Positions 1,997 to 55,175 of a stretch of DNA of 64,000 nt are shown piece after piece. The stretch is from Candidatus Gottesmanbacteria bacterium (lineage in GTDB: Bacteria > Patescibacteriota > Microgenomatia > UBA10105 > UBA927), in NCBI GenBank assembly GCA_023245355.1, contig JAHFKN010000004.1, positions 25,309-89,308 of the forward strand. The letters are read 5' to 3'. The number at the start of each line of letters is the position of its first letter. The first letter of the stretch is position 1. A program made the position numbers and the translations under genes. Below the pieces are notes generated by a model. That model did no database searches and had not been told where the DNA came from. It worked only from the letters and a program-made list of their open reading frames with translations.

Positions 1997-2513
1997 CTCT
2001 TGCAGGCACGCCTGCCACCATGACGCTGTCTGTCACATGCTTCGTGACAACAGCACCGGCGCCGACTACGCTTCTTTTGCCGATTACAACTCCGGGCAAA
2101 ATGATCGCTCCGGTGCCGATATAGGACCCCCGCTTCAGTACGACCTTGTCTTCATGCGTGGGATATATATTCTGCAGCGGATGATCGTTGTAGCCTACAT
2201 TTATATGCGTAACGATGGTTACTCTGCCGGAAAGCGTTACTTCGTCGGCAAGCTCTATGCCGCCGCGAACGTCCAGACTGACTTCATCACCCAAAAAGCA
2301 TTTGTTACCGATCGTCAGCCTGCTGAACCCATAATGGTGCAAATTGGTAAACCGAATATCCATAATCACCGTATCTTTTCCTACCGTTGCTCCCGCCAGC
2401 CGGAGCAGGAACACCCGCACGGGAGGCAACGACACATGAATGAGCCAGGCATACAGGCCGTACCACACAAACTTTACTGCTTTGGAAAATCCGATCGTCC
2501 GTAATGCATTCAT
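1980..2513 (-). CDS. Hexapeptide-repeat (left-handed beta-helix) acetyltransferase, WbbJ/WcaF-like
   Basis: Repeated [LIV]G-x4 hexapeptides (GTGAIILPGVVIGKRSVVGAGAVV) and an N-terminal hydrophobic helix. Confidence 0.75.
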   Translation of the reverse strand: MNALRTIGFSKAVKFVWYGLYAWLIHVSLPPVRVFLLRLAGATVGKDTVIMDIRFTNLHHYGFSRLTIGNKCFLGDEVSLDVRGGIELADEVTLSGRVTIVTHINVGYNDHPLQNIYPTHEDKVVLKRGSYIGTGAIILPGVVIGKRSVVGAGAVVTKHVTDSVMVAGVPARVIKRI

Positions 2514-2522
2514 ACTGGATAC

Positions 2523-21207: not shown

Positions 21208-21232
21208 ACGTAACGCAGAGAATGCCATCGGT

Positions 21233-28100: not shown

Positions 28101-31100
28101 TTTCTGCTCCCACATCCGTACCGAATACTGCTTTTATGAACGTTTGCCCGTCCGGATACGCTGAGGCGGCGCGTCCGATAATCTGTTGCTGCGTGCGGTA
28201 CCGCTCCACAATTCTAACCATTTCATCCCGCACCGGCCGCGTAAATCCGTACGTTATCTGATATTGATCATAGACGGCCCGGATTGCCTCGTCGTCTGCC
28301 TGCGGATTTGCGATAAGAAGCTCGCGGACTTCGGCTTCCAATCTGGCCAATCCGACTCGGTAATAGGCATACTTTTTATCAAACGCCGCCTTGGTCATCC
28401 GGCGTTCCCAGGAATTCGGCGGGGTTTGCCGCATGGTGGTTATCCACTCGCTCACGTCAAACGTTTCGCCCCTTCGTATGGGAACGGCGGATATACTCTC
28501 CCGGAACCTGGTAAATAGATATGGTTTTTGCAGGAATTCAGGAATTAATTGCTGAAAGCCCCATACCGACCGCGTTACCGGTTTCTCCGGATCCATAGAC
28601 TCGAGTATTACTGCTGCCGGCGGCTCCATTCCCTCTTCTATAATCGGTGTCACACTGTCGATTACTCGCCCGACCGGACAATCATTTGCACCCTGAGGAT
28701 CTTGTGCAAATACCAACGGAATCAAACGCAATGCAGACCCTCCGCATGCCTGTTGTCGCACCCGTTTCGCCGCGGCTCTGACAAACTGTTTTGCCGGCCG
28801 GGTCACCGGTGTATATGCATTCCGAAGCGCCCTGCCGCTGCGCACTGCTGCAAGCGCCAGCTGCGGATCAATCCACGGACGGCTTTGCTGACGGAATTGC
28901 GGAGATTGCGGCGCAGGTTCTGAAGCAGGAATCAGTTTCCCTATTCCCTGCGGAATAAGCACCTGCATGGTCTCATCAAACTGCCACAACCCGCGCCACA
29001 TAACACCCAAGGAAGCTGTTACTCTTGTAAACCAACGTTTGTCCGTCTGCTGTCCCTCAAGACGGAGCATGGCGCGCGCGAGCGCAATGTTTGCACGCAA
29101 AGACCGCTGAATCGCACCGGGATTACCGGCTGCAACTTCGGATGATTTGAGCGCACGTCCTGCGAAAATCCGCTGCACGAACCGGAACGGCCGCTGCACG
29201 GCGGTATATGCAACTCCGACAAACACCGAACTCAAACTTAGATTCGTGCCTGGCACAGACCCCTGTTGCCGCGCCGCCGCCAATGCGCCCCCCTCTTCCT
29301 GTGTAAGTAATATGGCGATTTGTGATCGTCCACGGCCCTCTGCAATCGCGCCGTATTTGGCGACAAACTGATCAAACGTAAGCGTTTCACCGCGGATAAT
29401 TCCGTCTCCGGTCACTTTTCCGTTTGCAAATTTATAGTTTGCGTCATATACCGTAAATGTCTGTATTCCTGCTTCATTTGTATCAATATACGCTATGTGT
29501 CCGGGATTTTTTGATCCTTTGTTGTATACGACGAAAAAATGTCCGGGTCCGTATGTTTGCAAATCTTGTTGCGACTGTACGCGTAATACGTAATATTCAC
29601 CCCGAAATACCAATCCGTCGGGATCATTGGATAATTCATCACCGGCCATAGATTTCGCCACTTCACCTCCGATTGCTGAAATCGGAATATTGAAATCAAC
29701 GAGCCCGCTTTCTACGAGAAGATTTGCAAACGCCACACATTGCACCTCCTGATCCGGCCAAACATTGCGCTGCGAGGTGAACAGGTCATCCAGGAAATCG
29801 TATGCATCATAGTCCGCCCGGTCGAGCTCACGTGCAAGCGTCTCAAACCCGCGGTCAACCAATCCTGTTTTTAATGCTTCACTCGGCGTTACTGTATCTC
29901 TGTCAGGGCTACTTTGCCATTCGTTGAGGATATCTGCAAATACGTTGGACATAATAGCCGCCTGCGTTTTGGCAGCCGGGCCCAATATCGTCCGCGCACC
30001 TGCTGCTGGTAGCCGCGGCAAAGCGGTAGGAACCTGTGGCAGCGTTTCAGCAACCGGTGGCTGCGCCTCAATAACAGGCGGCTGTACTTCTTCCGGTTGA
30101 CTCACGGCGGCACTTTGTGCTGGTACCGACAGCGGTTTAGTTCCGGCAGGAGACAACACCTGTACTCCTTTAAACTTAGCAAGGAACGTATCGACCGGCA
30201 TGAGGTACGTGCCCGTCGCCTCATCTTTTTCTATACCGGCATACACACCCCACGTAGACGGATTGATAAATGAAGTCATCAGGCCGTCTGCCAGCCGGAC
30301 GAATACTTCGCCGTCACGCTCAACAAACCCCAGATACACCAAACTGTGTTCGGTAACTTTCGATGAATTAAGGGAAATGATTGTTCCATGGGCAACACCC
30401 TTGTAGGCTGCTTCCTGCTGTCCCATCATGACCCGAAGTAATGACTCCCTCAGATCAGCAGACGGCACATACAGAATAACTTTTCCGTCCTTGATCTCGT
30501 ATTGTATGGACGGGTGCTTGCTCACCATTTCCAGGAATACCGACTGGGTAACTTCGTACCGCGTCTTGGACTGCGAAATGACGGGGATTGTTTCGTCACT
30601 TAACTGATAGCCCATATTCTTAAGAATTGAGGCAAATTCCGTCTTCCCTTTCCCCTCCTGAACCCCGAGATTCAGAAGCGCCAGCGCCTGTTCTGACTTT
30701 GTTCCGCCGCCGTGGTTTAAATATTTCTCCACGATTGCAGGATCCATCGTCAGACTGTCGCGGGACTGAGCTTCGGGAGACAATAATTCCGCATACAACA
30801 ACGGGTCGATAACGACAGGCACGGTTCCCGTAGTTGCAGTCTCTGCATCGATAAGCGATATTGCAGCCGTAAGCGTATGGATATAACAGGTAAATCCGCC
30901 TGCCTGCGGCAGCGCGATAACGTATCCTGAACTCTTGCTTCCCGGCAAGCCGCTTTGGATTTGGGAAAGCGGAATTGCAGCGGTTTGCGCACCGCGTTCT
31001 TCCGTCGTTGCCGACGGGAATACGTCATCATGGAGAAGTGACCCGCTTGGCTGACCGTCGGACGGATATGTCACAACCCGGGCAATCACCGTCCCCTGTT

Positions 31101-34100
31101 CATTCGTGATATCGACAACTTGTGCGCCTGCCAACACAAGCCGCGCGTTGATACCGTTTACATTTCCTTTTCCGAGCGTTGCCTCCAGACTCTCATACAA
31201 CTTACGCACATCATCAACCATTCGGTTTTGTTGTGCCGTACTAGTACCATACGTCCGCTGTGACTTGACATAAGTTACAAGCGCCTGCGTCACATCCGTT
31301 TCATACCCGAGCGAAGACACTGATACGGGGACAGCTGCGGACGGACCACTCCCGCTATTACTCACGGGAGGCAAGACCAGTATCTCACTGGGCTGTTCCT
31401 GTTGATCAGTGATGACATTGCTGCTTTGCTGCCTGCTCGCAAGATAATCCTGAATCCGTTCTGAATACCCCTTCATGGCAGGAACCTGAGACAGAAGGAG
31501 TGCTAGGGCCAACACACCGCTGACCATTTTAATCGTTACCTGCGCGAATACTTTTTCCAGCGATTCAAATACGCGCCAACCGACTGACTGCAATCCGAAC
31601 AATATGGCAAGAACGGCTGCAATCATTCCCGATATCTGCGGCAGCCGCGTCTGCACCAGTGATCCGTACTGGGGAACCATCATGGCAATCGCCGCAAGGA
31701 ACCCAAGTCCTGCCGCTATCTCAACTGCTATCAGTATGTTATTTCTGGTAAATAATCCGCTGATCTGATCACGAAGCGGTGCTATCTGCTTCCGCGGACC
31801 TGCCGGAACAAGGACGGACGGCAATAAATCTCCGCGCTGCCCCCGTGTTACTGCCGGCGTCTGACCGCGGTCTTTTGCTCCGTATATCGAACCAAGCGCG
31901 GTAATCCATTTCCTCGTATTGTTCCTGATATTTCCTTTGTAAAGGGAAGTATCAATCCCTGTTAATACCGCCGTAACGACGTCGTTGATCTCTTGGGTTT
32001 TGACCTTCTCGCCTCTTGCCAGCCGTTCTACTACTGCGCGGGCCTGTGCATTCCCGGCTATGGCGCCGACAATGATATTGGCAGCGCTGTCGCCGGTAAT
32101 GCGCGTAATCAGTCCGAATGTCCGGGCATCTGCTGTCTCCCGGACCATCGAAGTTACCAACGCTGCCCGCACGGATTCAATAAGCGGAGACACCGGGGCT
32201 CCGGAAAGATGCCGCACTACATTCTGCTGGATAAGCGCCAAATCAGAATAATTATGAACACGGATCTGATCTTCTATCGCAGTATCGACTGCAGACTGGA
32301 CGAATGTTACCCATGCTTCATGCTGACCGACGTATTCCAGCAAACGGTCCTGAATATACACGGCAAATAGAGTCTCCCAATGGTCTTGCGAGATTGCCGC
32401 CGGACGGATCGGATATGCAGTACTTACCTCACGCACAACTCTGTCACGGAATTCCGCGTCATTGCGGTCAATGACACGGCCTTCCGCAACCCACGTGCGC
32501 AAAGCTGCGCGTACCTGCGTACGGATTTCCGCTCCGCGGATTCCCATAAGGTCAGCAAACCCCTTTGTCTCTTCCGGCGTTACGCGGAATAATTCATAAG
32601 CAGCGATGAGTCTGCTCCTTAATGCGGCAATGTCTTCTGTTCTCGCCGGAGATCCGGTATCAAGGGTAGGACTGCGTAATAATTCGGTCAGCAATGCATA
32701 CTCTTCTTCATGTCCGTATGTTGCCGTCCTGTTTGCACCCCTGCCTCTGCTGATAGTTCCGATCCTGTTTTCGATAGCAGTACGGAGAACAATCTGTTCC
32801 TTTCTCAGTGCTTCAAGCTGAGAAGCGAAAATCACATTTGATTCCTCAGTCATCTCCGTACTTTGTAATTCTTCAGGAATTATCTGCGGCTCGGGCGTCT
32901 GCCGTTGTGCCGCCTGCCTGATAATTTCAGGATCTACTCCTACGGTTCTGGCCAATATTGCCGTTAACCGGGTCGCGCGCTCATTGCGTTTTGCCCGTGT
33001 GACCAACCGCTTCATTGTGTCTGACTCCATTACACGGATAAGACGCGGGGTGGCAATGGCGATATGAATTTGCTTATCCTGCGATGTGAATTCCTCCTGA
33101 TGCGATTCTATATAGGCAAGCGCTGCTCCTCCCTGAAGCTTCACTCCCTCAATAGTCGTAATTTGCAGCTGCTGGTCAAGCTGGAATCCGAGCGTCCGTA
33201 TAACAAATAACGCCATTGTCGGATTGGTAACACCAAGAATGCGTACCGGCCTGGTATACCACGGCATGCGTTGAATTTTTTCTATCGCACGGACCAAATC
33301 AACAGTTCCTAAATTGACCGACTGGACATCATATATCGCATTTTGGCTTGCGCTAAACGGCACGAAATGCATCCACATGGGTATCAAAGGAATAATCGAT
33401 TGGGAACTTTTGATACGGCGCGGAATGAATGATATGAGTGATTCAATAAACCTTGGTACACGATCATATAACCGTGATATAACGTCACTTACACGGGATC
33501 GCTCGAAAGCCACTGATCCGGTCCAGTCATAATTAGACCCGGTCATACGTGCATGGATATTTGTGTCTGTTTGGAACAACTCTTCTTCCGTTAGCGACGC
33601 TAACGCTTCGCGATATCTATCTTCAGAAAAGTTCTCGTCCGTTATTCCAAACCGCTCAGCCACTCCGGGCGGCAGCGATTCGATCAGGCGGAAATTTACC
33701 ATCTGCGGCGTTTCATAAAAATCACGCTTACTGTTGTATGGGATACCGAACTCATCGAGAATCGAGCGCGCTGCGTCGCGATTGGCTTTCGTATTTTCAA
33801 GACGGATTATATTCAGGTTCAGCCCGGAAGCGATGCCTGCTCGACGGGCTAAATCAGTCTCCGTACGGGACATTTCGAGCCGAAGAATACGTAATAATTC
33901 TTCCACAACCCGGCTCCTGTCATTTCCTGTTGTAAATATCCGCCCATGTTGTTCAATAAAGTACGTAACTTCATTCAGGGTAGAAACGACAGCATTCGTT
34001 GAAAGATTCCAGAGACGGTTCTCCGAAATCAACCGGAGCCCTGTGGTAAGCAGTACAATCGGGTTTATTTTATCGGTATCCACACCTTCTTTTTCTATAA

Positions 34101-37100
34101 GGGATTCAAGCACCTGAGTGTCTATTCCGAATCGCAGGCTAAGCATCGGAATAACATCTTTGGATTGTAATTTGCTTGTCGCGGTAAACCGTGCAACATC
34201 GGACCGGCTACGGGGAACCGACAGTCCGTTGTTTCCTGATCCCCCATCAACGACAACCGGCACTTCATTGACTGCCGCTTCTTCCTCCCGGATAAGGCTT
34301 CTTCCGTCACTCAACAGTAGTTGCTCAGCCGACTGCACCGGGCTCAGCAGTATGGGATATGAAGTCTTCCCCGTTACCTCAAAAATAGTCCTCACATCAG
34401 ATGCCAATTCCAGCATCCGTTCCTGTGCAGCCATGGGATTTTGCAGGTCGGCCACCAACATGGCAACCGCGTCAGGAAGGGTTATTTCTGGGGGTATGGG
34501 TTCTTCTTCCCTTGGGGGAATACCTGGCGCCGGTGCCCCACCCGCAGGCTGCTCATTCTTTCCGCCCGGCTCCCCCGGTTTTAGAAGCCACAAATAATGA
34601 GCAATATCAGTGATCAATTGTGCGAAATTATCCTCGGAAATACCATACGTTTGTGTGATATGAGCAAGCGTTTCATCGGTCGGTTGCCTGTATTGGACAT
34701 CATTGGGGAATAATTGTTGGAGAAGTTCTGTGGTAATTTGCGCGGCATGGAGTCCACGGAATATCTGCTCTGTTTCTTCTGCACTGCGTACCCATCCGCT
34801 GTTTGCTTCCTCAAGAATTTCCAGCGTCAGCTGCTCCTGCCGTACAACAGCAGGAATCTGAGCAGTCGGATTGACTGTCATGGATATCAGTGTCCGCATA
34901 TATATTGTCAAAAGCGCCCTCACTGCGTCGGGGTTTGCCCGCACCTGAGTAAACTGCCGTTGAATTGCCGCTTGCGCCTCATCCCACCGGGGATTTGTGT
35001 CCAGTTCTTCCTGTAGATCAGTAAGACGCGGCAATACCAACTCCCCGGTAGCTCCCGATATATCGGCAAATACCGCATCGAGCATTGCGTTATCTTTCGT
35101 TGCGTCCAGCCCGAACCGCGCCGCCATTTCATCCATAAGATCCCGGATAGTGCTTTGCGGTGCAGGCGCAGGAGCTTCCAAACTTGCATAAATTTCCGAT
35201 ACCCATGACTCAAGTTCTGTGGTGTTGATTCCTGTTTCCATGATTCCGCCGTCAATAAGCAGCATTCTGATCCTGTCACGGAGCATCGTTTCCCTGTGTT
35301 GTCCGCGTGCTTCTGCAACAAGCCGTTCATCAGACGCTACCCGTGATAACAGGTCATAAAATTCATCAAGTGCAGCGCGGTCCGCAATGACATGCCGTAT
35401 ATACCCGGTAAACCGCTCAGCTTCGAAGCCTACTGTCTCTTCGAGTAACGGGCTCAGGGATTCACGCACAACTCCGATTCCCTGTGCCTCTGTCGTCCAT
35501 GATTCCTCACCGAGCGCACGGACTACGGCAGTAATATCAGTAAGGAGTGCTTGTGCCCGGTACGGATTTCGCATAACCGCACGGATAATATGCGGAGTAA
35601 GCGGAGCAAGTTCCCGTGCATCGGCAAATAATCCCAATAATGTCTCCCACGCAACTTGAACGTGCGGGTCACGCCAGGCTTCCAATACACCCACCGGCGG
35701 CATAACACCTACCAGCATGTCTGTCACGATCGGTGCGATAAGCTGCCGCCACCCATCGGGAATACCGCGCGTTATGGCAAATGTAATACTTCTTCGTCTC
35801 TCATTCATGGCACGTGCTCCGCGTGAGCGCTTCTGCTGCTGTGCCCTGGATAAAGCCAACGCTTCCCTACCCGCCCGTTGACGGATGTTTGTCGCGATAA
35901 ACTCTCTGGGAGCTGCCGGAGGTACACCCTCATCAAACGTCATACCCCACTTTGTCAGTTGGTCCAGGAAATCATTGAGCCGCTCCTCGACAGACTGCAG
36001 CACGTCGTACCTGCCCATTTGGGATCCCGTCCTTCTCGAATACCGTCGCTCAGGCGGAGCAGTTCGGTTATACGCATCAATACCGTTTTCCAGCAATTCC
36101 AACGTACTCTGACCGCCCGTCGTTGTCTGATCTACCGCTGCCGTCCTCTGATTCAGCTGCCCTAAATATGCAACCATCGGATCAAACACCTGCCGGAGAA
36201 TCGGCTCGCTTAATCTGGTATACGTCTCACCCGCTTCGGGACCGGTGTTATCTACACCGGCAATCATATGCTCCATAAGCTGATGGATAGTGCCGACTTT
36301 TACGTTTACCTTGCTGTTCCATGCAGCCAAAAACTTATCCGGACTGATATGAAAGGTGGTAAACCGGTTTAATATAATACCCGTCACGGCATCGGCAAGT
36401 ACCGGTGTACTATCTTCATTGATCCACGTTGTTCTTGCTTCTGCAATCGTCCGCAGTATAAAGTTTTGCAGATCCTGAATTTCACGGCGTAGCTGCCCCG
36501 CCTCCTCAAGGTTCTTATATGTCTCGGTCTCTTCAATTAAACGGATAAATATATCCTCGGGTACAAATATCGGCAATCCCGGATTACGCAATTCCGCTTC
36601 ATACGCCGCGCGCAATATGTCTGCTGCCCTATCCGCTGGGCTCGCTATGATGGCTCTTCGTGCCGATACAAGGGCCCGTAATTGATCCCTGATTTCTTCT
36701 GACTTCGCCTTCGGGAACTCAGTTAACAGCCATGCATCATAGGCCGCACGGGTTTCCTGAACTTTTTGACGAACCTCAGCGGTAACAGTACGGAGTTCGG
36801 AAACATTCTGATTATCTACAGCGTCATACCACTGTTGCGGTACGTCCTGCAGCGTCTTGTGCATATACGATTCCTGGTCGCGTATGATACGAATTGACGC
36901 CTCAATATATTGAATCCGCAATTTACGCTCGAATGATCCAGCCGCCCTCTTCCGTTGTTCTTCCGGCAATATGGTGATTTTCTGTACATCTGCATCAAAC
37001 GCGCTGATAAGCTTTTCTGTCTCATCAATGTTATCTTCTGCGCCAAGCGACAATCCCTGATATCGGCTCCGCAATTTAGAGAGAATCTTATTCCCTGCCT

Positions 37101-40100
37101 GAGTAACTTTTTCCTGCAACTCCGCCCCGTAATGCCCATACTCGCCGCGGGCGATTGCGTCGGCAATCTGCTGCAACCGTGCAGTATCACGGCTCAGCCG
37201 GGCATATACTTCCATATCTGCCACAGTGGACAACTCGTCAAAAAACGCCGTTGCCGCTTCAAATTTTTCCATTGACGATGTATCTGCCCCGGGAACGAGC
37301 GCCTTGAGATCAAACACCGGCTGATCCAACACACTGAAATCTCCGTTCCCGATATTTTCCATAAGACGCTGAGTAATCTGTATGTTCCCCTGCATGTCTG
37401 CTTGTGCAGCATCTGTCAGTGTTTCCGCTTCTGACCGCATGAACTCATCCAATGCTATCAGTGCGTTATACCGGTCCAATCTCCTTTTATAAATCGCGTA
37501 GTCATTTCCTTTACCCATGCCGCTAAACCACGCTTCCGAAAATACCGTTTCTCCCCCAAGCGCAACTCCTGCCGGCTTCTCATCAAATACGCGTTTTGCC
37601 GTCTGTATATACAACGCGTGATACCCCGAGATAGCTGCATGGTCCCGCGGGGAATATTCTTCCGGAGAATAAAACCAGGCGTCCGCATTCTGGTAATATC
37701 CTGAAACTTCCTCAGACATCCACGCTTTAAATGCACCTTGCCCGAATTGACTGTCAAATAGGGTACCGAATGGCGGCACCATTGAGGATCCACCCCGTAG
37801 CAAATAGGTGTACCCTGTGTCTGCTGTAGTTGCCAGACTGTCCAAAATCGCCCGCTCCTCAACACCTGCCTTACGAAGCAAATTAACGGCCTCTAACACA
37901 CGGGCAACACCTGTTCCGTATGCTATGAATTGAGCATCCGGTACGACCAGCTGAGCCAAACCCGACGTAAATGCTTCAATGTACGTTTGTTCCTGCGATT
38001 TATTAATGCTCAGATTTTGCACCTGACGTTCATGAATCATTTCATGAGCCAATGTGTTTACAAGCATTTCAGTGTTATTAAATTGACTTGTCAGCACGAA
38101 ATGACCGCTCAGTTGCTTTGATTGGAAGCCAACCACGTCAGCGGCATCAGCGGTGTCGTATACGATCCCAAGCTTTGCGTCGAGCACGGTAAACGGCACT
38201 GCATACCGTCCGGACCCGAATGCGAACCGGTGCCCCGTCTTGTCTTCAACGGTCTGATTAAGATAATTATGCACGGCAATATTGAGATCAAAATAATTGC
38301 TGAGCGTACCGAACGAAGAAAGGATATCCTGATAACTCAGGCGCATACTTGCAGCCGCAAGATATAATTCATCATCCGTTACTTCCGTAAGCGCTCTGTC
38401 GTCGCGATATACTCCCCCGTTTACCCGTGATTCTATTGACTGCAACAGGGCTGCCTGTAAATTCGTCAGATTAGACAAATCCAAATGACCGCCATCACGG
38501 GTGTTTTTCAGCCGTTGCTTGGCAATACTCGTTTTGTACAGGGTAACAAGACCCTCAACGGTGCGCTTGTTTTCGGCTGCATCCCCGTACATACGGGATA
38601 TATACTCATCAGCAACTTCCCTGAGATTAATTGTCACGCCTAACAGGTGCGCGACTTTAGTCTCCATGTCTTTCTGTATCAGACCGGCACTCCCTATCTC
38701 GGTATTCAGGGTGGTAAATTGGGAAATTTCCGTTTCGGTAAAATCAAATCCGAGCCTGTCATATTCACTCTTCAAACTGCGTAACGCCGTCGCAGTAAGC
38801 ACGCTGTTTTTGTCATACCCGTTCGCACGGATAAAATCAGAAATATGATTGGTAAATTGTGCGTATCGTCCGATAAACCGCCGCACCTCATAATAATCAG
38901 TAGCCGCCTTCCCGAGTTTCACAGACGCCACACTCTTCTCTAACGTGGTGTTCTGGCGTGAGCTTCTGCCCGCTGTTATCCTGTCTATCACGGACTGTAT
39001 TGCCGGGGGAAACTGTTTCTTTTCCGTCGTATCCCCCGCCGGAGCCACAGCTGGTGCTGCCTTTTTAAGTTCTTCTATCTTCTTTTCTGCCTCTAAAATC
39101 TCTTGCTCATACTCCTTGAGCGGGTCATTACCGAGAATTGCATCTGCCGCCAGATTCCACAGATTACGAAGCACGCTTGAGGATTGTCCGGTAATTTCCG
39201 CTTTTATCGCCGTGAGTGTCCGCTCGGCAGATGCAGCATCGGTCATCGTACGTATCAGGGACAAATCCGCTTTGCGCTGCGCGCGGATGAACGCGAACAC
39301 TTCATTTGCCTGCTTTGCGCTCTTACCTGCTAATTCTGCACGCACCGCGTTCATAGCTAACGCCCGTGCAGTCCGCGCATTTTGCCTCGCTCTGTCTGCA
39401 AGAGCTACTTCATCAGGAGCGTCAAAAATGTCAGCTTCTTTGGTATGCACAAGATATCGGACTATATTAAACAGAATCGTATTTACGGGCTTCCCTGCAT
39501 CCTCATGGCCGGATCCCGGCCTATGATTATCTTCATGCTGCTGTATAGCTGACATAATGTCATTGAGATACCCGATAGCAGAATCTGTTTGCCCCACACT
39601 CCTGGCCTGATGGGCCTTTGCAAATAGCGGCATGATGACGTTTTCCACAAAATCAGAACAGTCAGAACAAAGCAGCGGATTGATTTGTGCACTGCTGAGC
39701 ATCTGAGCTTCGACATTTGCACCGAATAAATTCGCGACGAGAGCACCGACATCGGCGCCACCCGAAACTCCGGCCGGTGCTGCCGTATATACCGTAGTGT
39801 AGATAAATTGCGATTCCGACACGGTAACCGGCGTTTTTACCCCCTCAAGATCAATATTCCACGTTGACCTGTTTATACCGTTTCCTCTGACACGTCCTTT
39901 TATCTCAAGCACCGTGCCGTTTGCATTCGTATATTGAGCGATAACGTCAATACCAAGTCCCTGCGCGACACCTGCCGGCAATACTACGCCTGTCAGGGTA
40001 TATCCCGTGAGATCAACTTCAGGCGTTGTTGTCACCGGTGCAGAAGGAACGGGGACCTGGACAATAAGTGTTCCTGCTTCAAATGCTAACCGCTGCTCTT

Positions 40101-43100
40101 CCGTCGCAATCGCCTGCGTCACGCTGTCCAGTAGAGTCGTTGCGGAAATGACGTCGCGGACAAATCCTGCACCCGGCACGACACCTGCCACAAGCGCTTT
40201 TTCAAGCGCTTGTAAGGCGGTAAGATGTTGCTGTTCACGGGCAACAACAGAAGATACAAGATTATTGAAAGCCTGAACAATTGCAGACGTATTTCCCCAC
40301 AGCGCCCTAAGGTCCAGCCGGCCGATAGCCACCCCCTGCCCGCGGATTGTTTCCAAAAACTCATTCATCTGTTTTTGTGCTGCTACCAACTGTGATGCTG
40401 CGTCTGCTTTCTGCTTTCCGGATATATACGCATCTTGTGCTCGGCTCACCATTGCCTCAGCTGCTTTAATATCTTTTTCAATTTCACGGAGCTTTGCTTC
40501 ATAATCAATGACTGCGCCTGACTCTGCATTCGCTTTTGCATTCACGACTGCCTGCAGCGCTGCCTGAGCCGCACTTCTTGCGGTCTGCAACGCTTCGGAT
40601 TGTTTGCGGACGAATTCATTTGCTGCAGCAAGTCTGGCCTGAAGATTTTGTAATTGTTCCTGCTGCTGCGCCGTCAATTGTCGTGACGGTATCGGTTGAG
40701 CACCCTGAGGTCGCCTCCAAAAAGCACTGATCTGATCAAAAACTGAGACAGTAAATGGTGCAAACGTATACGTTTCTGGAGTAAACGTATTTACGACCGG
40801 GGTATCATACCGATAGGAATAAACAGTAGTGTTTATTTCCTCCGTGACCCGTTGTACACCTTGACTGCCAAACGGACTTGTTGCATCCAAAAATACAAAA
40901 TCGCTTCCCTTATACGCCCGGCTTAATTTATCGTCCAGACCCAGCACAGTGCCGTTATTGTATGATTTTGGTGCAGCCGGATTATGACCATGAAGTATAC
41001 GCGGTGCTATCGCATGTGTATTAACATCCGTAACAAAAAGAGACCGATAGTAATCGGACAGCATTTGACTCCCTTGTAGTTGCCCGTGGTGTGTGAGGCT
41101 TCGGAAAAGATTCTCAAGTTGAGTTGTATTCCCCCTCGCTATGATAGCGCTGATATTGGCATTGATCCGCTTTACTACGTCATCAGCGCTCAACCCTAGT
41201 GCCTGTATACGCTCCCTGACGCGCCGCAAATCATTTATATCTACCTCTTCGGAATCACGCAGATCTGCAAACGCAGGTTCCATAAAAATATATTTTGCAT
41301 AGATCGCGCTATCACTATGCTGCATGATGTCACCGCCGCTCCGTAGCGATATCCAATCAAGTGAAGCAAGTAGTTTCCGTAACGACGTGACGTTCTCCCT
41401 AGCCTGACGAACCTCTTCGGGATCTACTCCATTTCGGGCAAATAACCCGCCACCTTCAAACGACGGAGAGTTAGGATCTGATAAAGCTGCCCAGAGAAAT
41501 TGAACTTCATGATTTCCGCCCATGAGCAGCATGTCACCGCCCATACGCCGCGCTTCATCACGAAGGGTTGTGAGACGCCGTAACAACTCTAATCCCGGTT
41601 GGCGTGCATACTGCGCGAAGTATCCGGACTTCAGATATGGCCGTACAGTGAGCCGTCCGTCAATAAACTTAATACCCCGGTCAAAATAATCACCAAGAAA
41701 TGTCATCAAAATACGCGGATCTTTTACGTGCCATTCATGCTGTGCATCTACGGTAATTGCCCCACGTGACAATAACACCTGTTCAACTTGTTCCGGGTCA
41801 GCGTGAACATCTGCTAATATCAACCTATACAAGGCCGCATCTATCTCACTGATAACGACATGTTCTGCTATCGTCTTTTCGTCCCATTTAATCCCTGATA
41901 GTATGGTTGCCGTGACTTTTCCAAGAGACGGAATGATGATATTTCTGCCGAATTCATCGTACACCTGATTAGCTTCCTGATCAGACAAGCCGAGCCGCAC
42001 TAATTGCTCAATCTGATAGCTTCTGAATACCGGAGAGCCGAATCCTTTCGCGAATATTTCCTCCCGAACCCTGCCCTCAAAATCACTCATGAGACTCACC
42101 GGATCTATTTCAGATTGTGCGCGGGCGAATTGCTGCATCTGCACACCGATATTATGAACTGCCAAAGTAAGTTTGGATTGGTATGCTTCACGGAGCTGAG
42201 TATATGCACGTGCGTTTTTCTGCTGAAGTATCGTAGCTTCCTCCTCCTGTGTCGGGGCAGTTACGACCGGACTAACAGGTACCGGCTGTACCGACTCGAT
42301 CTCCAGCGCTATAGCAGCCACCTGCGCATTCGCTGATTCCAGTGCCGCCTGAGCACTCATAACTGCTTCATCAGCTTGTTGTTGTGTTGTAAGCGCCTGC
42401 TGATATGCTTCTTCGGCAACACGTCTCCGTTCTTCAGGATTATCCTCATTCTTTAACGTATTTATTGCATCGAAATCCGCATGTAACGCGGCGAGTTGTT
42501 TTTCTGCATCCAGTACCTCTTTCTGCCGTGAAGCCGCCGTATCTAATAACGTTTGTAATTCACCTTCTAATTGAATTAATTGCTGTTCTTCAGGCATTAT
42601 CGGAGATGTACCTTTTGCGGAAAATGCCGGCCGTGGCGTTACTTGTGCCAGATGATGTGCCCATAATCCCACACGGAGTGTGTCGTAGCCGATGATAAAC
42701 GGCACAAAAAGCGTCACGAGAAATGCAGGAATTATCCCTGCGATACCGATCGCTCCGAACGCCATACCAAGGACTGCTACGATCATCGGGAGCAAAATAA
42801 CACGCGAGACTGCATACCATACGATTCCTCCGAATCCTTTGGTGATACTCGCGTTCAGGAATGAATACAAACCACCCGATTTCGCAAACAGATTTTCAAC
42901 CCCGGTAAGCGCTCTGGGTGAGCTGGCAACGAGTGTTGCGACAAGCCGGGACAGGTCAAATCCGAATACTGCAAGCGCACGCGCTCCCCAGAACGGCCCT
43001 GGGAAAAGAGCGATACCGCGCGATATCCAGAATATCGCCTTATCTGTTCTTGGTGAGGCAGTAATCACGCGGGAGACAAACTGACGGATCGTCGTAGGTT

Positions 43101-46100
43101 GTGTGGTTTGTACCGGTGCAATGAGAGAACCCTGTGTCCATTCGCTTCTCGGAATCCACCAGACGGTCTTTCCGTTCGGAGCAGCCCAAAACTTCTTCCA
43201 TCCGGCTAACCCGTCATCTGCTAACCGCTGCAAGTCATACGCCCAAAGCGGACCCGAAATCGCATGAAGCGGCGGGAAAAATATACCGGCTATAGACAGT
43301 AACGGCCGGGAGATGAGCCATACACGCGCATTATTTCGCGGGGTTGCATTGGTCCACGCTTTCGGAAGTATGAAAAATTCAAACCCTTTCATGTCCCAGT
43401 TGTCCACGCTCTGAATATAGGAGGTGAGGGTAAGTGCGGGCTGATTTCTGTTGGATATTGCCCGCCCGATCCTGTACGTATCCCATGCCAGCCTGATCGG
43501 TGCCGCGGTCACGAGTGACGTCGTCCACTGCACGGTCTGAAGGATTGCCCGGAGCGGATTCCACTGCGGATCACCGATAGCAAACGGCGTTGCATTTACC
43601 ATACTCTCCAGTGTTCCCGTGCGGCTTCCTGCATTGATATTTTTGAGCGTCTGACTGAACTTCGGTGAATTCATGAGCGGCAACGTCCAGTCACCGTGGA
43701 AGAAATTCTGTATGGTCGGCACTGTTAACGCCACATTTGCAGCTCTCACGGCCGCGGCTATCATCCGCGTCGGCGGCTGTAACAGTATGTCGTTAGCCAA
43801 AAACGCAATTCCTATCCATGGCTGACCGATGAAAAACGGCCCGATCCTAGTCGCGCCCCAGACAGCCGCTGCTCCCAATTGCTGCGGCGTGGCCCACTCG
43901 CCTTTTCCGGTAATCAGTCTCGTAAACACCTGACCGAGCAATCCGAACGGATGTGCCCCGAAACTCATATCATATGCCGTACCGATATCCTGCCATTGTG
44001 TCGTTACCGACTGCGGTTGTTGCAAAGACTGAGCGTTCGGAGCAGTCCGTGTTTGGGAATATTGAGGCGCCACTCTTCTGAACGCTAATTGGAATGCCGT
44101 CGGCATACTTACCAATGCCCGGCCGACAGATGTAACACCCGCCCACCTGGCAGCAACCCATTTTGCGCGGCTGGTTGCCGCGATAACACCATTTACGTTC
44201 CGGCGCTGACGCGCAATCCCGTCACGGACAAACCTGCCGGATAAGCCGTCAATTACCTGACTGATAATTCCGTCTGTCCGCTGTCTGTACGAAGTGACAA
44301 GTACGTTCTTATGGGAATCCGTCTGGATATGAACTTTCTCTGCCTGATCAGATACGGCGATATCGCTCCCTACAGCAGCACCTCTGACGACTGCCAAATC
44401 GGTAAATGCCTGTTTTACAGCTGCGTTTGTTATTGCCGGCGTATGCATAACAAACAGAGATTCCATCGCAGCACGCAAATTTTCCCTCGCGGAATCAGCA
44501 AGCGAAAGTACTGTCTGCTGCGGATTACCCGCAAGCGATTCTGAAGACAGGCTGCTTGCTGCCCGGGCTATCGCTTGTTCGTACGCTACAAACGCGGCAA
44601 CTGCCCTGGCATACGCTGAACCCCGCAGTATATCCTCTGTGACCTGAATGCCTGATTTATTGAGCTGTTCGGCAACTTTTTTCTCGGCATCTTTCTTTAA
44701 CGCTTCAGCAATTTGCGGAGATGTCGCCTTACCTAATCGGTCCATTTGGGCCGCAACTTGAGCAAGTTTTGAGTTCAGATTATACAATGGACCAAATTCC
44801 GGCGCGCTAATTGTTTGAACAGTCTGCAATGCGGCAGGACCCGAAGACACATCGATAACGGTTTCTATATTTCCGGTAACGAGCTTCACACTCTTTACGC
44901 CTGCCGGCAACGTAAAGACAGACGTATCATCAATGGTCTGGCTCTGTTCGGATCCGTCAGCGGCATTCCAGACAACACGCGTACCGTTTTCTATCGTATG
45001 TGCGCCGGTTAATGCGCTTTGATCTGTTCCCACGAGGATATCGCCTTTACGGATCGTACCTAAGGTATCCACGGTTTGCGTACGTATCGGTAAGCGTGCT
45101 TTGGCTGCCTCCAATTCAATTTTCGCCCGGGCAAGCTGGGCCGCTGCGACATTTGCCAGCGAGAGAGAAAACGCATCGGAACCGCTGAGTGATCTGCCGC
45201 GGCTTATCTGATCGACCAACGTCTCTGCTCTCCCCAACGAATCCAGAGCAACCTGTTGCCCTACCGGATCAGCAAACGGTGACGCTGCCCTGGTAATTGC
45301 TTCCACACGTTCCTGCGTCGTCACGGCAGCCGTATCCCGGCCCTGACGCGATACGCTGGTTGCTATATCGGATACACGGATATTTTCGTTAATGAGCGCT
45401 GTCCGCTGGTCAACACGGAGGACATTTTGTAAACTCGCACGTGTTTCGGGGGCCGCTGTGTCCGTTATCGCTATGGCGACCCGTTCACCGGAGTTGTACA
45501 TGGTATCGAAATAATACTGCCGCGCCTCCAGACTCAATTGCTTAAATTCCGGCAACTCCTTGATGTGGTTGATAAAATCCCTGGCCCTGCGAGCAGCCTG
45601 ATCGATGGCTTCCGAACCCAGCTGGCTCGATTGCGACAAACTGTCATTGATACCGGCTACTTTGTCATATTCCAACTTCAGCGCCTCGGAAAGAGACATA
45701 GTCTTTCCTTCACGTGTCACCATAAGCGGTGCCCCACCGTTCGTGCGCGCACTGATATCGTTTAGCAGATCAATGCTGTTTTTTACCAAATCATCATACC
45801 CCTGGCGCAAGGCATTCGTCAGTGCGTTTTGTTTGGCGGACAACTCATTGCCCTCAAAAATATCAAGCGCAAACTCTTTGTTTATACGGGCATCGGTATC
45901 GCTTAAAAGATATACGGTGCCGTCTTTTGCTATTTCGCGTGCCCGGCCGATATCCTGCACGACATCGGTCGTAGTTCCGGTGCGTTCACTGGTAAACACA
46001 TACTCCGGATCACCAGATCCTTTCAGAAGTGTTTTCCCGTCAGGACTCATCTGATGCGGTTCAAATACGCCTTTTATGTCCGTGCCTCTCCCGCTCCCCT

Positions 46101-49100
46101 GGTCGTATACGACGATAAACCGTTTGTTTCCGCGGTTTTTCAGCGCATATTCAGCGGTAAATTTTTCTATCGAGGTCCCGCTGGAATCGCCCTCAATAGA
46201 ACGCACATAGACTCCGTCTTTGTATACCTGCACTTTCCGGGTTTCGGCCACATTGTTATCGTTATTGACGACAATCACCTCGACGTCAGGCCCCATGCGT
46301 CGCGCTTCGGATAATACCTGACCAAGGGCAATCTCACGCCCGACTTCCTTAAGATCCAAAATGACGCGTGCGGCCTGTCCCTCTGCTAAATCTCCGATGA
46401 TCATGTTGGCAAGCGCACTCACTTTTTTCCATGCAAACTGACGCACCGCATTATCGCCGAAGATAAGATTGCGGCTCGTAAAGTCAGGGTTCGGAACTTT
46501 AAGCGTCATCCCGAGAGATAATTTTGCATCCAATACCACGCTGTCGGGAGTACCGGTAAATCCGTACAGGCGGGGTGAATAGTGACCGCTCGAGAGTATC
46601 TGTTTCCATGTCGAGGATTCTCCCTGATTCGACACGGTCACGGTATCAATCCGTAATGCTACGTCACTATGGTCCACATTGTTCCCCCGCATCGCTTCCT
46701 GTATGCGGTATCCCACTGTTTCGAGCGCCAATGCGGCGAGCGCTTCCTGCGGCCTGGTGTTCTGCAGCCTCCCACCGCCATCGCCGTATACCAATTGATT
46801 GTTCGCATCAAATCCGTACCCGTTGGTAGAGCGGGACGCGTGCTCAATAATCGCGTTCATCGCCCCTACCCGTTCCCCGAATTCGGACTTGAATGCAGAC
46901 GGTGTATCGCCGGATTTGTAATACCGGTCGAATGCGGCTACGACATCCCGGGGGTTCGTCCTGGGGTTTCCTGCATCATCCACACTAATCCTATTTTCCG
47001 ATAGAAATTGATCAAACGAACGGGTGTCTCCCTGTGCTTTACTGGCATCAAATGCCTGGCGGGCTGCCTCTGTCACCATGTCGCGGTACATTCCCTGAGC
47101 CGTATCGTTATCTGCTAACACATTGTGTTCGCCGGAACGGGTAAACAGCTCGACTGATGACTTCCGGGTTTGTACGGCAACTGCCATATCTTCAAATGAG
47201 CGCACGGCATTTGCCTCGTACATACTACGGTATTTCTGTACCAAACCAGGGCTCTTCTGACTCACCAACTCCTGCATCTGTCCGCCGGATGAAAATCGGG
47301 TACCGGCTGCTATCACATCAAATTCGTCAACCAACAACATGGCATCTTTGGTCGTTTTCAAAAATGCCTGGGTTAACGGATCGTCGGCACGTGATGCATG
47401 GAATTCATACGGCGTTTCGACGGTCGCGGAATACACAACGTCAGCGTCTGCCATGGCGCGCACAGCACGGGCATCTTTTCCGTCCAGTGTTACTACCGTG
47501 TTACTGGCGGCGTCAAAAAACGTTACTTCTCTGCCCTGCATGTTGTAATAGACTGCTTTCACGCCGTTTCTGGAATGCACTTGCGGGCCGTATTCACGGA
47601 TCATCCCCTGCACATCTGCCCAGGTCGTCGCCAGCACGTGTACCTTCGTGCCCGTCAGTACTACTTTAGAATCTGCAATTGCATTCAGGAGAAATGACGA
47701 CTTCCCCAATCCCGTTGCCCCGTCATATAACACACCCATGACTCCGGCGCTTCCGTCTATCTGCGTATCAAAAATGGCGTCATAGAAAATACCGGATTGA
47801 TCCAGTCTGCCGTCAGGATTGTTGGGGCCGGACATGCGAAGATCCGTCCCTTTCCCGTTGATTGCGCTCCAGTTTGTCTCCAGCGTATCTAAGAATTTCG
47901 ACACATCCGCGAGCCGCTGCGAGGCTGCTCTACTTGGTTTTCTGCCTTTACCCGTAGTGTCTTCTAGCATGAGCGTGTTATCTTCACCTCTCACGACACG
48001 GAACCCGTCGTTTCGTATCGCTTCCGCAGTAACCCGGAGTTTGCCCACCGTATCAACCGTGCGAAGCTGAATATCTGCTACACGCGCTCCGCCGAATATT
48101 TTGCTTATACGCACAAAAAGTGAACGGTTGGCTCTCGCCTGCACAGATTCAAACGCAGCAAGCGCATCGGCAGATTTAATCTCTAAATCTTTGATGGATT
48201 GTTCGAGTTCTGCCGGCACCGGCTTCCCTTCGGCTTCCAGAGTACGTTTGAGGCTTTCCGCTTCCGCACGACGCTCTTCAGCCACGATGTAGTTATACCG
48301 GGCATCAAGGCTTTGTTCCTGTATCGCTCTTCCGCTTAACACGTCGGCTATCCCCCTGCCGGTATTTGGCGTTTTGGTAATGTTGGAAACAAATTCGGAA
48401 AACTTCCCGCGGAGCGTCCCTGCGTAGGCTACCGATGCACGGAGCGATTCTGCTTTTGCCGCGACGACTTTGGCCTGCTGCTGCAACGGGGCTAATTCCT
48501 GCGTTTCGATTTGAGCGGCTATTGTCCTGCGTTCAGCAACGTTCGGATGCAGGTCGCGCTCAGTTGCTACCGCATTTACCCTGTCCAATGCTTCCTGCGC
48601 ACGGCTGACTGAACGCTCTGCTATGGCTATCGCTTCATCTGATGCATTGCGGGCTCTAAGATCCGTCAGTGCCCGATTGGCATCATCGACCTGTTTTGTA
48701 CGCAGTGCGATATCTTCTGATATATCCGGCTTATCAAACAGCTGTATGCGGTCCTCAGCTGCAATGATTTGTTCGTCTAACCCTACCAATGTTTCCTTGG
48801 TAGTTTTAAGCTGGTCGGCATATGTTTTCTGTGCGGCCGTATAGGTGTATGTTGTTGCTGTTTCCTCTGCAGACTGAACATGGCTGAGTGCTTCGGAATA
48901 CACCGGTGAAGACGGATCCGTCGTCTTTGCAATTTCTTCAAACGCGTCTATAGCCGCACGGTAATCACGGACCTCCGTAGGTTCCCGCCCCAACACCTGA
49001 TCACGAACGCGTTCCGCAAACGAACGCGGATCATGAAGTGTTGTTGCTGCCTGTTCGGTCGCTACTACCCGCTGTGACATTTCAACTGACCGGCGGGCAG

Positions 49101-52100
49101 CTTCGATCATGCCGCCTGTCACTACCTGCTCTACCGGCAACCCTGCAGCATCATAGGTACCGGTCGGTACGGAAGATTTAACGGTGCCGTCCGGATTTAC
49201 ATACTTTTGCCAGATATCAACGGCGTCAGCAAGCGCACGCTCAGCGGGTGTCATTTGCGCAGGATCTTTTGTTAATGTTTTGTCTTTTGTCGCCTGGGTG
49301 ATAATCGAATTTGTCTGCGAAACAGCTTGTGCTGCCGCCCCGATCGCTGAACCAAGACGCGTCTGTACGTCAAGCTGGAGCGCTGCCCGGTTCGTTCCGT
49401 CTACATGCACGGTTTGACCGTTAAACGTAATGTCGCTCGGAAAGATAAGTGACGCGTTGCCTAACTCTACCGCGTCTGCCAGAGCCTGTGCGCGAGCAAC
49501 AAACGGGTCATCGATCCGTACAAGATCTGCCTGAGATTGGTGCAGGGCAGACTCACCGACAGACAAACCGGCCATCATGACGTTCGTGGCACAGCTTTCA
49601 AACGGAACCGTCCCGAGTGCTGCTGCCGTACACGCGACACCCGCTTGGGCAGTGTTTACGATTTGATCGGCGCGCATCAGCGTCCGTGCAGTTGCTGACT
49701 GCGGAGCGCTGGCTACAATCGGCGCCGTAACTAAACGGCCGGCAGAAACCATGGTCATGCCGGCAGACACCAGACAATCAGCGCTTAACCCAGTCTCCGC
49801 ACAGGTCTGAATTGTTTGGCTTCCGAAAACCGCTGTCCCCAACGCATTCCGTCCCATCTGCACGGCAAGCGGCTCACTTGATCCGCTGAATACCGTCCGT
49901 GCGAGATTTTGCGTAACGGCATTGGTTTGCTGAAGTAATACTTCCTGCGTTACGGCAACACGTCCTGCTTGCCGTGCTAACACGGCCAAATCAGCTACGG
50001 CAGCGTCTGCAGGCGAAATGAGCCGCGCAACCCCCGATAGTTTACTCCCGGTCGTTAATGCAATATCAGCGCTGTCCAGCAACGTCAGCGTACCCTGCTG
50101 AATCCGTTCGATACGGGCAACCCGCGCCATGGCGTTAAGTCCCCGGGATGCCGGCAAAATGGATGATGCGGCAAACAATGTCATACCCGCTGACTGCAGA
50201 CAGGCGCTCGTGTTCATATCCGCATGCATTGTGCACACCTGTGCCGTATCCTGAGCACTGGAACCGGTCATATAAATACTCATGGACTCCCCTGCAATCG
50301 CGAGCGCTGACTGCGCAGTCAGTGCCGCAGCCCCGAGCTGCGCAATCCGAAGCGGCGGCACAACAATTGCCACGGCAGTCATAACCGGCTTTGCCGTCAT
50401 CATGACCGGTGCCCGGATATTACGGTCATACCATGATGCATTCGGATCATCCCGTATCAGCTGTCCTTCAAGTAATGCACCGTTTTCAAATTTATTAAGT
50501 CCGATTGCTACGACAGCCAGCGGATCCGTCGCAACTATATGTTCGTATGCCCGCTGACCGGCTGCGATATCTACTGTTCCGTTAAGCACTCCCTCCAATG
50601 TCACGTCCACATTGCCGGAGGATAATAAAAATCTTGCATCCTCAGACTGTATATACGCGGAAACCTGCTCATGCTGATACTTCTGGATGGCGGATATATC
50701 GGTCGTTCCGAGTTTTTGCCCTACCTGTTGCTGCAATGACTCCTGTGCCGCAGGGTTCAGATTGACTATGTATGCACTGGCCAACGCATTTGCCTGGGCA
50801 ACTTGAATCTCTTTTTTCGCCTTATCAAACGCACTCTGCTCCTCAGGGGTGATAACCCCGACGACGGACGCCTGATGCATCGCCTGTTGTGCTTTCTTAT
50901 ATTCTGCGTTTGCCGTATCCAGACTCGTTTTTAACGCGTCCATGCTGTTGTTGCCGGAAAGAGCCGCGTTCACGACCCACTGGGGATCAATCGCCATCAG
51001 ATCTTTTGCCCCCTCAATCTTATAAACGCCGGTATTGATATTGTCCGTAATCGCATACCCGACCGCTACACGGTGGGTAAGAAAATCTTCCGTCGTCTGT
51101 TTTTTGGGATCGGCCGTCTTTTTCCATGTGTCATATTCGAGTTTGAGTTCCGGATCCGTTTTAAGTTGTATTTCAAAATTCTTGATAAGATCAGGATTGG
51201 TCGTTACGGCATAATCAACAACGACGACCGCTGATTGTTGTTGCTGAAGAGTAGCAAGCTCAGGGTTTAACCTCGTGGTAAATGCGCCGTTACTGACCGA
51301 ATTTGCGACACTGACAAGCGGCATGAGCGTCTGTTTCCAGGGTTCGATTGACGCCATCGCCCTATCCACACTGCGCTCACCTGATAATACCTGATTAAGA
51401 TACGCTGCTTCGCTGACAGGATCATCCGCACGTACCAAACCTAATTGCACCAACTTCGGTTTATTTTCATAATATTGCTGCATCTGATGCTCAAGATAAT
51501 CTTCAGTTGTAGTCCCCGGATTTGCTTTCAGCCATGCCTGTGCTTCGGGATTAGCGTTTTGTGCTGCTATATAGGTTTTTTTGTTGTCCTCAGGAAGCAG
51601 CGCGACATATCCCTGCGCCTGTGTCGTTGCGTCTTTTTCACTCATCCCGAACAGGTTGTTAAATGACGTTTTGGTTTTCGTAATAACCGTGTTTAACCAT
51701 GTTTCACCGACACGGGTTGTAGTTGTGGTGGCAGGCCCATACCCGGGAGGACGGCTTGCCATAACAGGATGTAATTCGTCATAGAGCGCCGTGGGCACAA
51801 CCTTCCCGGACTGCACGTCAGCTAAAAATGACAGATATTTGCCGTCAGCTTCCAGTTCCGGCCGGAGTTTTTCAATTGCGTCCATTTGCGCCTGATCAAA
51901 TGACGCCTGCCATATCGCTTCCGTTTTCCCGGCAGTGCTTCTTCCCTGTTGTAATTGCTCTTTTTTCCACTCTTCGTAGGCACTGGAATATTCACTGTCA
52001 GGATTCATAGCAACCAGCGATTGCGGAGCTGCCTGCTGCTGTTGTTGTTGCTGCTGCTTAACCGCATCGACAATCTGCGGCGCCACCTGTTTTTCCAGTG

Positions 52101-55023: not shown

Positions 55024-55024
55024 G

Positions 55025-55095
55025 TGGACCCGAGGGGAATCGAACCCCTTTTTGAACTATGCCATAGTTCCGTACTACCGGTATACGACGGGCCC
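55025..55095 (-). tRNA. tRNA-Ala (anticodon GGC)
   Basis: Hand-folded. Acceptor GGGCCCG/CGGGTCC with the G3:U70 Ala identity pair, anticodon stem GAACT/AGTTC, loop ATGGCAT, T-arm AGGGG-TTCGATT-CCCCT. No encoded CCA. Confidence 0.8.
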
Positions 55096-55102
55096 TGACA
55101 AG

Positions 55103-55175
55103 TGGACCTGACCGGAGTCGAACCGGTGATCTCCGCAATGCGAATGCGGCGCTCTACCAACTAAGCTACAGGCCC
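55103..55175 (-). tRNA. tRNA-Ala (anticodon CGC)
   Basis: Hand-folded. GGGCCTG acceptor with G3:U70, D-arm GCTTAGTTGGTAGAGC, anticodon stem CCGCA/TGCGG, loop TTCGCAT, T-arm CCGGTTCGACTCCGG. 7 nt from the neighbouring tRNA. Confidence 0.85.

Follow-up and report, generated by a model that had tools for sequence, protein, structure and literature searches.

The 64-kb window analysed here (64,000 nucleotides of contig JAHFKN010000004.1, from a Candidatus Gottesmanbacteria assembly) carries on its minus strand, at 22105..54639, an open reading frame (ORF) of 10,844 amino acids (aa), and ORF analysis of the window places within this giant protein an ATPase module whose conserved block spans aa ~2200-3100 (45340-48042, minus strand). 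Residue numbers given for the module are those of the 10,844-aa giant protein. The order of its motifs, together with profile comparisons, assigns the module to helicase superfamily 2 (SF2), and on balance it is probably a divergent 'DEAD-like' SF2 motor, predicted to be catalytically intact and SecA-like, which would act on polypeptide at the membrane.

The defining elements of SF2 are all found in the module: the Walker A and Walker B motifs lie in a first RecA-like domain (RecA1), motifs III, V and VI follow in order, and there are two RecA-like domains in tandem. The features are as follows, the alignments being those of a 12-member family described below and of the SF2 reference families.

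47761..47772, minus strand: Q-motif-like FDTQ, aa 2290-2293, aligned to SecA FDVQ by both BLASTP and hhalign, which is weak evidence.
47695..47721, minus strand: motif I (Walker A) GATGLGKSS, aa 2307-2315, aligned to the P-loops of DEAD-box proteins, HsdR and SecA.
47602..47634, minus strand: motif Ia-like strand and helix LATTWADVQGM, aa 2336-2346, conserved in the family and aligned by hhalign to DEAD-box PTRELA and SecA TVNDYLA.
47317..47340, minus strand: motif II (Walker B) MLLVDEFD, aa 2434-2441, paired with LDEAD of DEAD-box proteins and VDEVD of SecA.
46600..47316, minus strand: insert of about 240-250 aa, aa 2442-2680, alignable in all 12 family members.
46546..46806, minus strand: end of the insert plus motif III, a SecA-like segment, aa 2612-2698, LVYGDGGGRLQNTRPQ..ALALETVG..VTVS..TWKQIL..LYGFTGTP.
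46546..46563, minus strand: motif III GFTGTP, aa 2693-2698, with TGT at aa 2695-2697.
45895..46407, minus strand: RecA2-like domain, aa ~2745-2915, aligned by hhalign to the DEAD-box profile over 130-132 columns.
46075..46107, minus strand: motif V YDQGSGRGTDI, aa 2845-2855, with GRGTD at aa 2850-2854, paired with TNMAGRGTDI of SecA and TDVAARGIDI of DEAD-box proteins.
45931..45957, minus strand: motif VI QDIGRAREI, aa 2895-2903, aligned to DEAD-box HRIGRTGR and DDX17 HRIGRTAR.
45340..45894, minus strand: C-terminal extension of the module, aa 2916-3100, ~190 aa, with 44-48% identity to distant homologues.

The ordered chain Walker A..hh.DE..[ST]G[ST]..G...D..Q..GR.R occurs once in the protein, at aa 2310-2901, and in none of 2000 shuffles; Walker-A-like strings alone are weaker evidence, with 3 observed against 0.62 expected in the giant protein. 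Across the family the motifs are kept in five GTDB genomes, four metagenome contigs and two distant giant proteins, and the Walker A lysine, the Walker B DE pair, motif III and the glutamine and arginines of motif VI are retained in 11 of the 12 members at identities of 20-25%. The Walker A pattern TG.GK[ST] is kept in every member but one (L033), motif VI Q..GR.R is invariant (alignment positions Q646, G649, R650 and R652), and the aspartate of the FD pair in the FDTQ element (D42 in the alignment) is invariant in the close clade. Motif II reads DEFD in the clade of the window protein and DEAQ (LLADEAQ) in the distant clade. In the exceptional member, L033, the P-loop (~aa 1006-1014 of frame 1, nt ~3016-3042) reads ATGSHKTT, a GK to HK change which may mark an inactive copy or a sequencing error. 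A separate irregularity was seen in L001, a copy from an ENA metagenome, where a short double frameshift inside RecA2 produces in-frame stops at 10860-10930; because the coverage of this contig is only 5.5x, it is probably an assembly error and not a sign of a pseudogene.

A preliminary description of this DNA, made from the letters alone, had listed four motif strings, and all four are present, with coordinates that were off by at most 6 nt or by 1-2 aa. GATGLGKSS had been given its correct residues (true nucleotides 47695-47721, given as 47701-47727) and GFTGTP lies exactly where it had been placed as motif III, while MLLVDEFD had been assigned to aa 2436-2441 (its nucleotides, 47321-47330, fall inside the true span) and QGSGRGTD, at aa 2847-2854 (46078-46101), to aa 2846-2853. 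The interpretation of QGSGRGTD as motif VI has to be replaced, as this string belongs to motif V, the counterpart of SecA NMAGRGTDI, and the true motif VI is QDIGRAREI. The module span of aa ~2300-2860 was too short, missing the true motif VI, and the conserved block extends over aa ~2200-3100. The inserted subdomain that had been suspected between motifs II and III was borne out, being conserved throughout the family.

The likeness of the module to particular SF2 families was assessed by hhalign of the 12-member family profile, segment by segment, against self-built reference sets of SecA/SecA2 (10 sequences), HsdR (7) and DEAD-box proteins (7) drawn from E. coli K-12 and PLSDB records. In RecA1, P was 1.5e-6 for DEAD-box, 3.9e-5 for HsdR (1.6e-6 to 3.9e-5 across runs) and 2e-4 for SecA. 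For RecA2 the values were 1.5e-4 for DEAD-box (132 columns, covering motifs V and VI; 5.4e-5 and 1.5e-4 across runs), 5e-3 for SecA, at motif V, and 0.17 for HsdR. The segment made up of the end of the insert and motif III, taken alone, gave a P of 3.8e-4 with SecA versus 0.056 with HsdR and 0.19 with DEAD-box. The whole module matched SecA in a single collinear stretch of 176 columns (P 1.3e-4), running from SecA residue 329, in the end part of its preprotein domain, through motif III and IY.L.V..IP to NMAGRGTDI in motif V, and at lower stringency 406 columns were collinear with SecA 84-528, including FDVQ/FDTQ and both Walker motifs. Plain hidden Markov models (HMMs) of the three reference sets, run on the family members, gave best E-values of 4.3e-5 for SecA, 1e-3 for DEAD-box and 0.018 for HsdR. 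Column-shuffle nulls, with z of about 10-13 for the profile matches, compared with the observed values as follows.

Whole module against SecA: null 17.8 +/- 2.7, observed 45.9.
Whole module against DEAD-box: null 16.3 +/- 2.9, observed 53.2.
Whole module against HsdR: null 16.3 +/- 2.5, observed 33.1.
Motif III segment against SecA: null 13.5 +/- 1.9, observed 33.2.
Motif III segment against DEAD-box: null 12.5 +/- 2.3, observed 15.2.

In SecA, the preprotein cross-linking domain (PPXD) lies between motifs II and III, inserted in the first nucleotide-binding domain (NBD1). By alignment, the insert of the window protein occupies this same position; its last ~80 residues, together with motif III, align by hhalign to E. 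coli SecA 329-396, and these appear to be its only SecA-like part, the remainder being predicted to form a different helical domain. The N-terminal part of the insert is helical in the AlphaFold2 model, with helices at aa ~2520-2600 at a predicted local distance difference test score (pLDDT) of ~80. The insert occurs in both subfamilies in the 12-member alignment and, because it is present and alignable in both, it is taken to be ancestral to the family.

The family is tiny: all the searched collections together yielded about a dozen loci. Three word-indexed searches over 5.8 billion proteins returned only three fragments of close relatives, and an exhaustive phmmer search of 1.84 billion cluster representatives gave 11 matches, including two distant giants, P0009 (7512 aa) and P0011 (3899 aa). 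Among 185,579 GTDB species genomes there were five loci, with module identities to the window protein of 82% for L003 and about 50% for L004-L007, and a scan of JGI metagenomes added four, of which L032 is 95% identical in the module and L033-L035 are 23-24% identical. The taxonomic labels of these records are unverified: L004 is labelled 'Patescibacteria group bacterium', and four others carry the automatic label 'uncultured Gammaproteobacteria'. In L003-L007 the homologues of the giant protein are uninterrupted ORFs of more than 6000 aa that run off the ends of the loci. A chance ORF or artefact was considered and rejected, given at least six uninterrupted homologous ORFs and low proportions of nonsynonymous differences (pN).

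In a sliding 100-aa comparison over the first 4200 aa, conservation peaks mainly at aa ~2200-3100. This block shares 40-62% identity with L004-L007, compared with 10-30% for most other 100-aa bins, and the bins that bear the motifs are the most conserved of all (58-62%). Relative to L003, the module has a pN of 0.10-0.13 and most of the flanks have values of 0.17-0.30, within an overall range of 0.06-0.30; synonymous sites are saturated in this comparison (pS ~0.75), hence pN is reported and no ratio of nonsynonymous to synonymous rates (dN/dS). The module is under purifying selection. A second conservation peak of the giant protein lies at aa 1400-1700 (49540-50442, minus strand), an Ala/Gly-rich, moderately hydrophobic block with conserved cysteines, and a similar block is present in P0009 and P0011. 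In both of these distant giants the domain order is that of the window protein, the Cys-rich region being followed by a hydrophobic cluster, then by a coiled-coil-like stretch and finally by the ATPase. P0009 (L036:232-22770) also has a precomputed match to LytR_cpsA_psr, a cell-wall glycopolymer ligase family; the C-terminal region of P0009, which is rich in Cys, contains HEFFHAW, an HExxH string, and two sulfatase genes adjoin the P0009 gene.

Curated libraries place the window protein in no family. Pfam searches of the whole giant protein and of nine short segments, NCBIfam searches, and phmmer and hmmsearch against the PDB gave nothing significant for it, and the 10,844-aa protein as a whole matched no Pfam-A family at E < 0.01; the ~90% of its length outside the ATPase block is likewise devoid of any Pfam-A match at that threshold. 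BLASTP and hhalign against the single sequence of E. coli SecA were not significant. For the first RecA half of the distant relatives P0009 and P0011, Pfam ResIII scored just under its 22.5-bit cut-off (E 1.3e-4 and 3.9e-4; 22.3 and 20.8 bits) and Pfam DEAD was sub-threshold at E 1e-3; the ResIII match spans the part of the domain that is common to all SF2 proteins. A nine-member family profile searched against the PDB gave as its best match the RecA2 domain of DDX17, at a non-significant E of 0.11, in an alignment that pairs motif V (SGRGTDI with ASRGLDV) and motif VI (QDIGRAR with HRIGRTA) correctly.

The AlphaFold2 prediction was of low confidence, with a pLDDT of 40 from two sequences and 50 from 11, and only the helical stretch of the insert reached ~80. 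With this poor model Foldseek found no PDB match at E <= 0.001 (template-modelling score ~0.12), and at the head of the list it returned were SF2 helicases that carry insertion domains (RIG-I, MDA5, LGP2, Hef and XPD), with SecA of Bacillus subtilis at rank 48. No ABC or AAA+ protein, the folds that the preliminary description had set against a helicase, was in this list. Because the model is poor, the Foldseek outcome may be taken as supporting evidence only.

How such a motor might be arranged is suggested by the rest of the protein. A strong N-terminal transmembrane (TM) segment is predicted at aa 58-86, a Thr/Pro-rich region at aa 1-780 holds 33 of the 45 cysteines of the giant protein, and TM hairpins occur at aa 3936-3990 and 7633-7721. 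The module, with its two RecA-like domains and the ~250-aa domain inserted into RecA1 between motifs II and III, would lie in the cytoplasm, because ATP is available only there. A cytoplasmic module would therefore imply an odd number of membrane crossings between the Cys-rich, Thr/Pro-rich N-terminal region and aa 2200, most likely within the conserved hydrophobic block at aa 1400-1700. ATP would then be used to move or remodel a polymer at the membrane, for which a polypeptide is the most likely candidate, in the export or assembly of either the protein's own extracytoplasmic segments or a partner protein; a nucleic acid would be the alternative substrate. The most economical reading is of an SF2 motor that is part of the envelope protein itself, tethered to the membrane and located in the cytoplasm.

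Several observations weigh against a SecA-like polypeptide motor. Both RecA cores score higher with DEAD-box than with SecA, and the helical first ~160 aa of the insert match no SecA, HsdR or DEAD-box profile (P > 0.3; range 0.36-0.56, and >= 0.46 with DEAD-box in the comparison with the 12-member profile). The C-terminal extension bears no likeness to the scaffold or the wing of SecA (P 0.27 when aa 2905-3130 were compared with full-length SecA by hhalign), and neither it nor the N-terminal flank of the module matches the SecA, HsdR or DEAD-box profiles. Pfam SecA_DEAD (PF07517) and SecA_PP_bind (PF01043) were found in none of the window protein, its segments, P0009, P0011 and P0006 at E limits of 0.01-10, and hmmsearch of the PDB with the family recovered no SecA. 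The reference profiles are small, at 7-10 sequences each, and the topology outlined above is derived from hydropathy alone.

The closest competitor to a polypeptide motor is a membrane-tethered ATPase of DEAD-box-like type that would depend on RNA or another nucleic acid and serve as an RNA clamp or remodeller; this we consider unlikely, though it keeps a place among the candidates because the RecA cores score best with the DEAD-box profile. Proteins of the RhlE/DDX type provide the best profile for both RecA halves, and motifs I, Ia, II, V and VI all align to them. Unlike DEAD-box helicases, however, the module has TGT(P) and not SAT as motif III, DEFD or DEAQ as motif II, and a spacing between motifs II and III of ~250 aa compared with about 30 aa. 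The DEAD-box profile leaves the motif III region unaligned (P 0.19-0.22) while SecA aligns there. Both the large RecA1 insert, which has no DEAD-box counterpart, and the SecA-like motif III segment go unexplained in this reading. Pfam DEAD and Helicase_C stay below threshold on the window protein, which has the context of a membrane protein, and the only RNA-related element nearby is an adjoining, unrelated rho gene.

A restriction-type (HsdR/ResIII-like) DNA translocase, which would track along or pump double-stranded DNA, e.g. in DNA uptake or in attack on a host cell, was the flavour given to the module by the preliminary description, and it is the weakest of the three SF2 readings, drawing support from nothing beyond the generic RecA1 half and the TGTP string. 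The TGTP-type motif III, the good fit of HsdR to RecA1 in every run and the sub-threshold ResIII match, the top one on RecA1 of P0009 and P0011, do speak for it. Nevertheless, HsdR gives no match to RecA2 (P 0.12-0.17), which both SecA and DEAD-box fit better, and at motif III its match is weak (0.02-0.056) and surpassed by that of SecA; the best match of the HsdR HMM in the full giant protein is noise elsewhere in the sequence, and the HsdR profile alignment has no counterpart of the 250-aa insert that separates motif II from motif III. Pfam and NCBIfam scans of the giant protein and of 18 of the 39 window ORFs of at least 150 aa, a set that includes every large non-overlapping neighbour of the giant gene, detected no nuclease, methylase or specificity family, and so neither hsdM nor hsdS nor mod. 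A restriction-type translocase is accordingly a distinctly improbable identity for the module.

Least probable of all is a degenerate pseudo-ATPase retained only as a structural scaffold of the giant protein, a reading to which the extreme divergence from all curated families and the HK change in L033 would lend themselves, and which is very unlikely because the catalytic residues are conserved with L033 as the sole exception and the motif-bearing bins are the best conserved.

Cell-envelope genes, together with rho and tRNA-Ala genes, surround the giant gene, as follows.

55230-56315, minus strand: LysM-M23 peptidase, 361 aa, directly upstream of the giant gene.
55024-55175, minus strand: tandem pair of tRNA-Ala genes (GGC and CGC anticodons), upstream of the giant ORF and ~385 bp from its first possible start codon.
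56572-58314, minus strand: transcription terminator Rho, with an N-terminal extension of ~190 aa ahead of its RNA-binding domain.
335-1474, minus strand: DegT aminotransferase, downstream of the giant gene.
2523-3239, minus strand: family 2 glycosyltransferase (GT2), downstream.
6459-8084 and 8081-9490, plus strand: two PMT_2/ArnT-like transferases, downstream.
9414-11474, minus strand: YfhO-like protein, downstream.
17001-18857, plus strand: NPCBM-domain protein, downstream.
21182-22039, plus strand: PIG-L deacetylase, downstream.

A phage or plasmid element was rejected, the neighbours being rho, tRNA-Ala, peptidase and glycosylation genes. The LysM-M23 ORF is syntenic, with the same length and position in L001 (1616-2701), L003 (1561-2646) and L004 (2309-3394), which suggests a functional link of the giant protein to cell-wall remodelling. 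The Thr/Pro-rich stalk of the giant protein is a possible target of glycosylation by the products of the surface-glycosylation-type gene run (335-22039).

A bolder proposal, which we hold tentatively and regard as rather doubtful, would draw these elements together into a clade of giant envelope proteins, possibly of Patescibacteria-type episymbionts, with a built-in SecA-descended motor. In these proteins a new helical substrate-handling domain would have been set on a remnant of the preprotein domain, and the motor would thread the protein's own >1000-aa, disulfide-rich and probably glycosylated stalk, or host-bound cargo, across the membrane without canonical SecA. If true, this would be a cis-acting secretion engine.

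Considering how the predicted motor compares with known systems, it resembles SecA and SecA2 (NBD1-PPXD-NBD2) in the order of its motifs and in the large insertion between motifs II and III, and local likeness is seen at VIIVDE.TGR..GRR.S, IY.L.V..IP and NMAGRGTDI. Unlike SecA, it shows only ~19% identity over the aligned columns and no Pfam or PDB sequence match, the N-terminal ~160 aa of its insert appear to be an unrelated helical domain, and it lacks the helical scaffold, the wing and the C-terminal linker. SecA is moreover a soluble protein of ~900 aa, whereas this motor is part of a membrane protein of 10,844 aa. Other SecA-like proteins came to light in the searches: PLSDB plasmids (H31-H37, H39; L016, L017) encode SecA-motor-only proteins of ~600-650 aa, annotated as 'DEAD/DEAH box helicase' or under 'prepilin peptidase', and on a plasmid of a Rickettsia endosymbiont there is a hypothetical protein of 1475 aa, part of which is 26% identical to SecA 64-588. 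All of them add to the cases in which a SecA motor is used outside canonical SecA.

The nearest parallel is provided by giant proteins from the Omnitrophota and Actinobacteriota. In the study by West-Roberts et al. (2023), many TM regions were reported for every full-length giant gene examined, and giants of these two phyla have divergent SecA DEAD and preprotein-binding domains without the scaffold and wing; they proposed that the divergent SecA domains export the giant protein itself (10.1101/2023.11.21.568195). Long proteins of Omnitrophota likewise include a cluster with a PF07517 architecture, according to a 2026 preprint (10.64898/2026.06.07.730766). A motor within such a protein, which the preliminary description had found unexpected, is consequently less of a surprise, as divergent SecA-type DEAD motors in giant TM proteins had already been described. 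By analogy, we read the module as the same kind of element. Like those giants, the window protein exceeds 10,000 aa, has several TM segments and a single internal SF2 motor with an insert at the position of the SecA preprotein domain and no scaffold or wing, and is encoded in a cell-envelope gene context. The published motors are recognised by Pfam SecA_DEAD and SecA_PP_bind, whereas that of the window is recognised at no threshold tried; this comparison draws on the published descriptions of those domains. The window protein also differs in that no related record is labelled Omnitrophota or Actinobacteriota, its family is tiny, and there is no other Pfam domain in the whole protein.

The kind of element is therefore already known and is not categorically new. 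What is new is a family that no curated model recognises, an insert that, from its alignment, is mostly unrelated to the canonical preprotein-binding domain, a different and poorly labelled lineage, and extreme rarity. Annotation pipelines probably under-count such motors. For the export and insertion of proteins of at least 10,000 residues with alternating inside and outside segments, a built-in, conserved motor is the obvious candidate, and aa ~2200-3100 offer a compact target for deciding between a polypeptide and a nucleic-acid substrate. Such a motor has already been proposed for the Omnitrophota giants, and the window locus extends the pattern to a different lineage, with a more divergent motor and a different insert.

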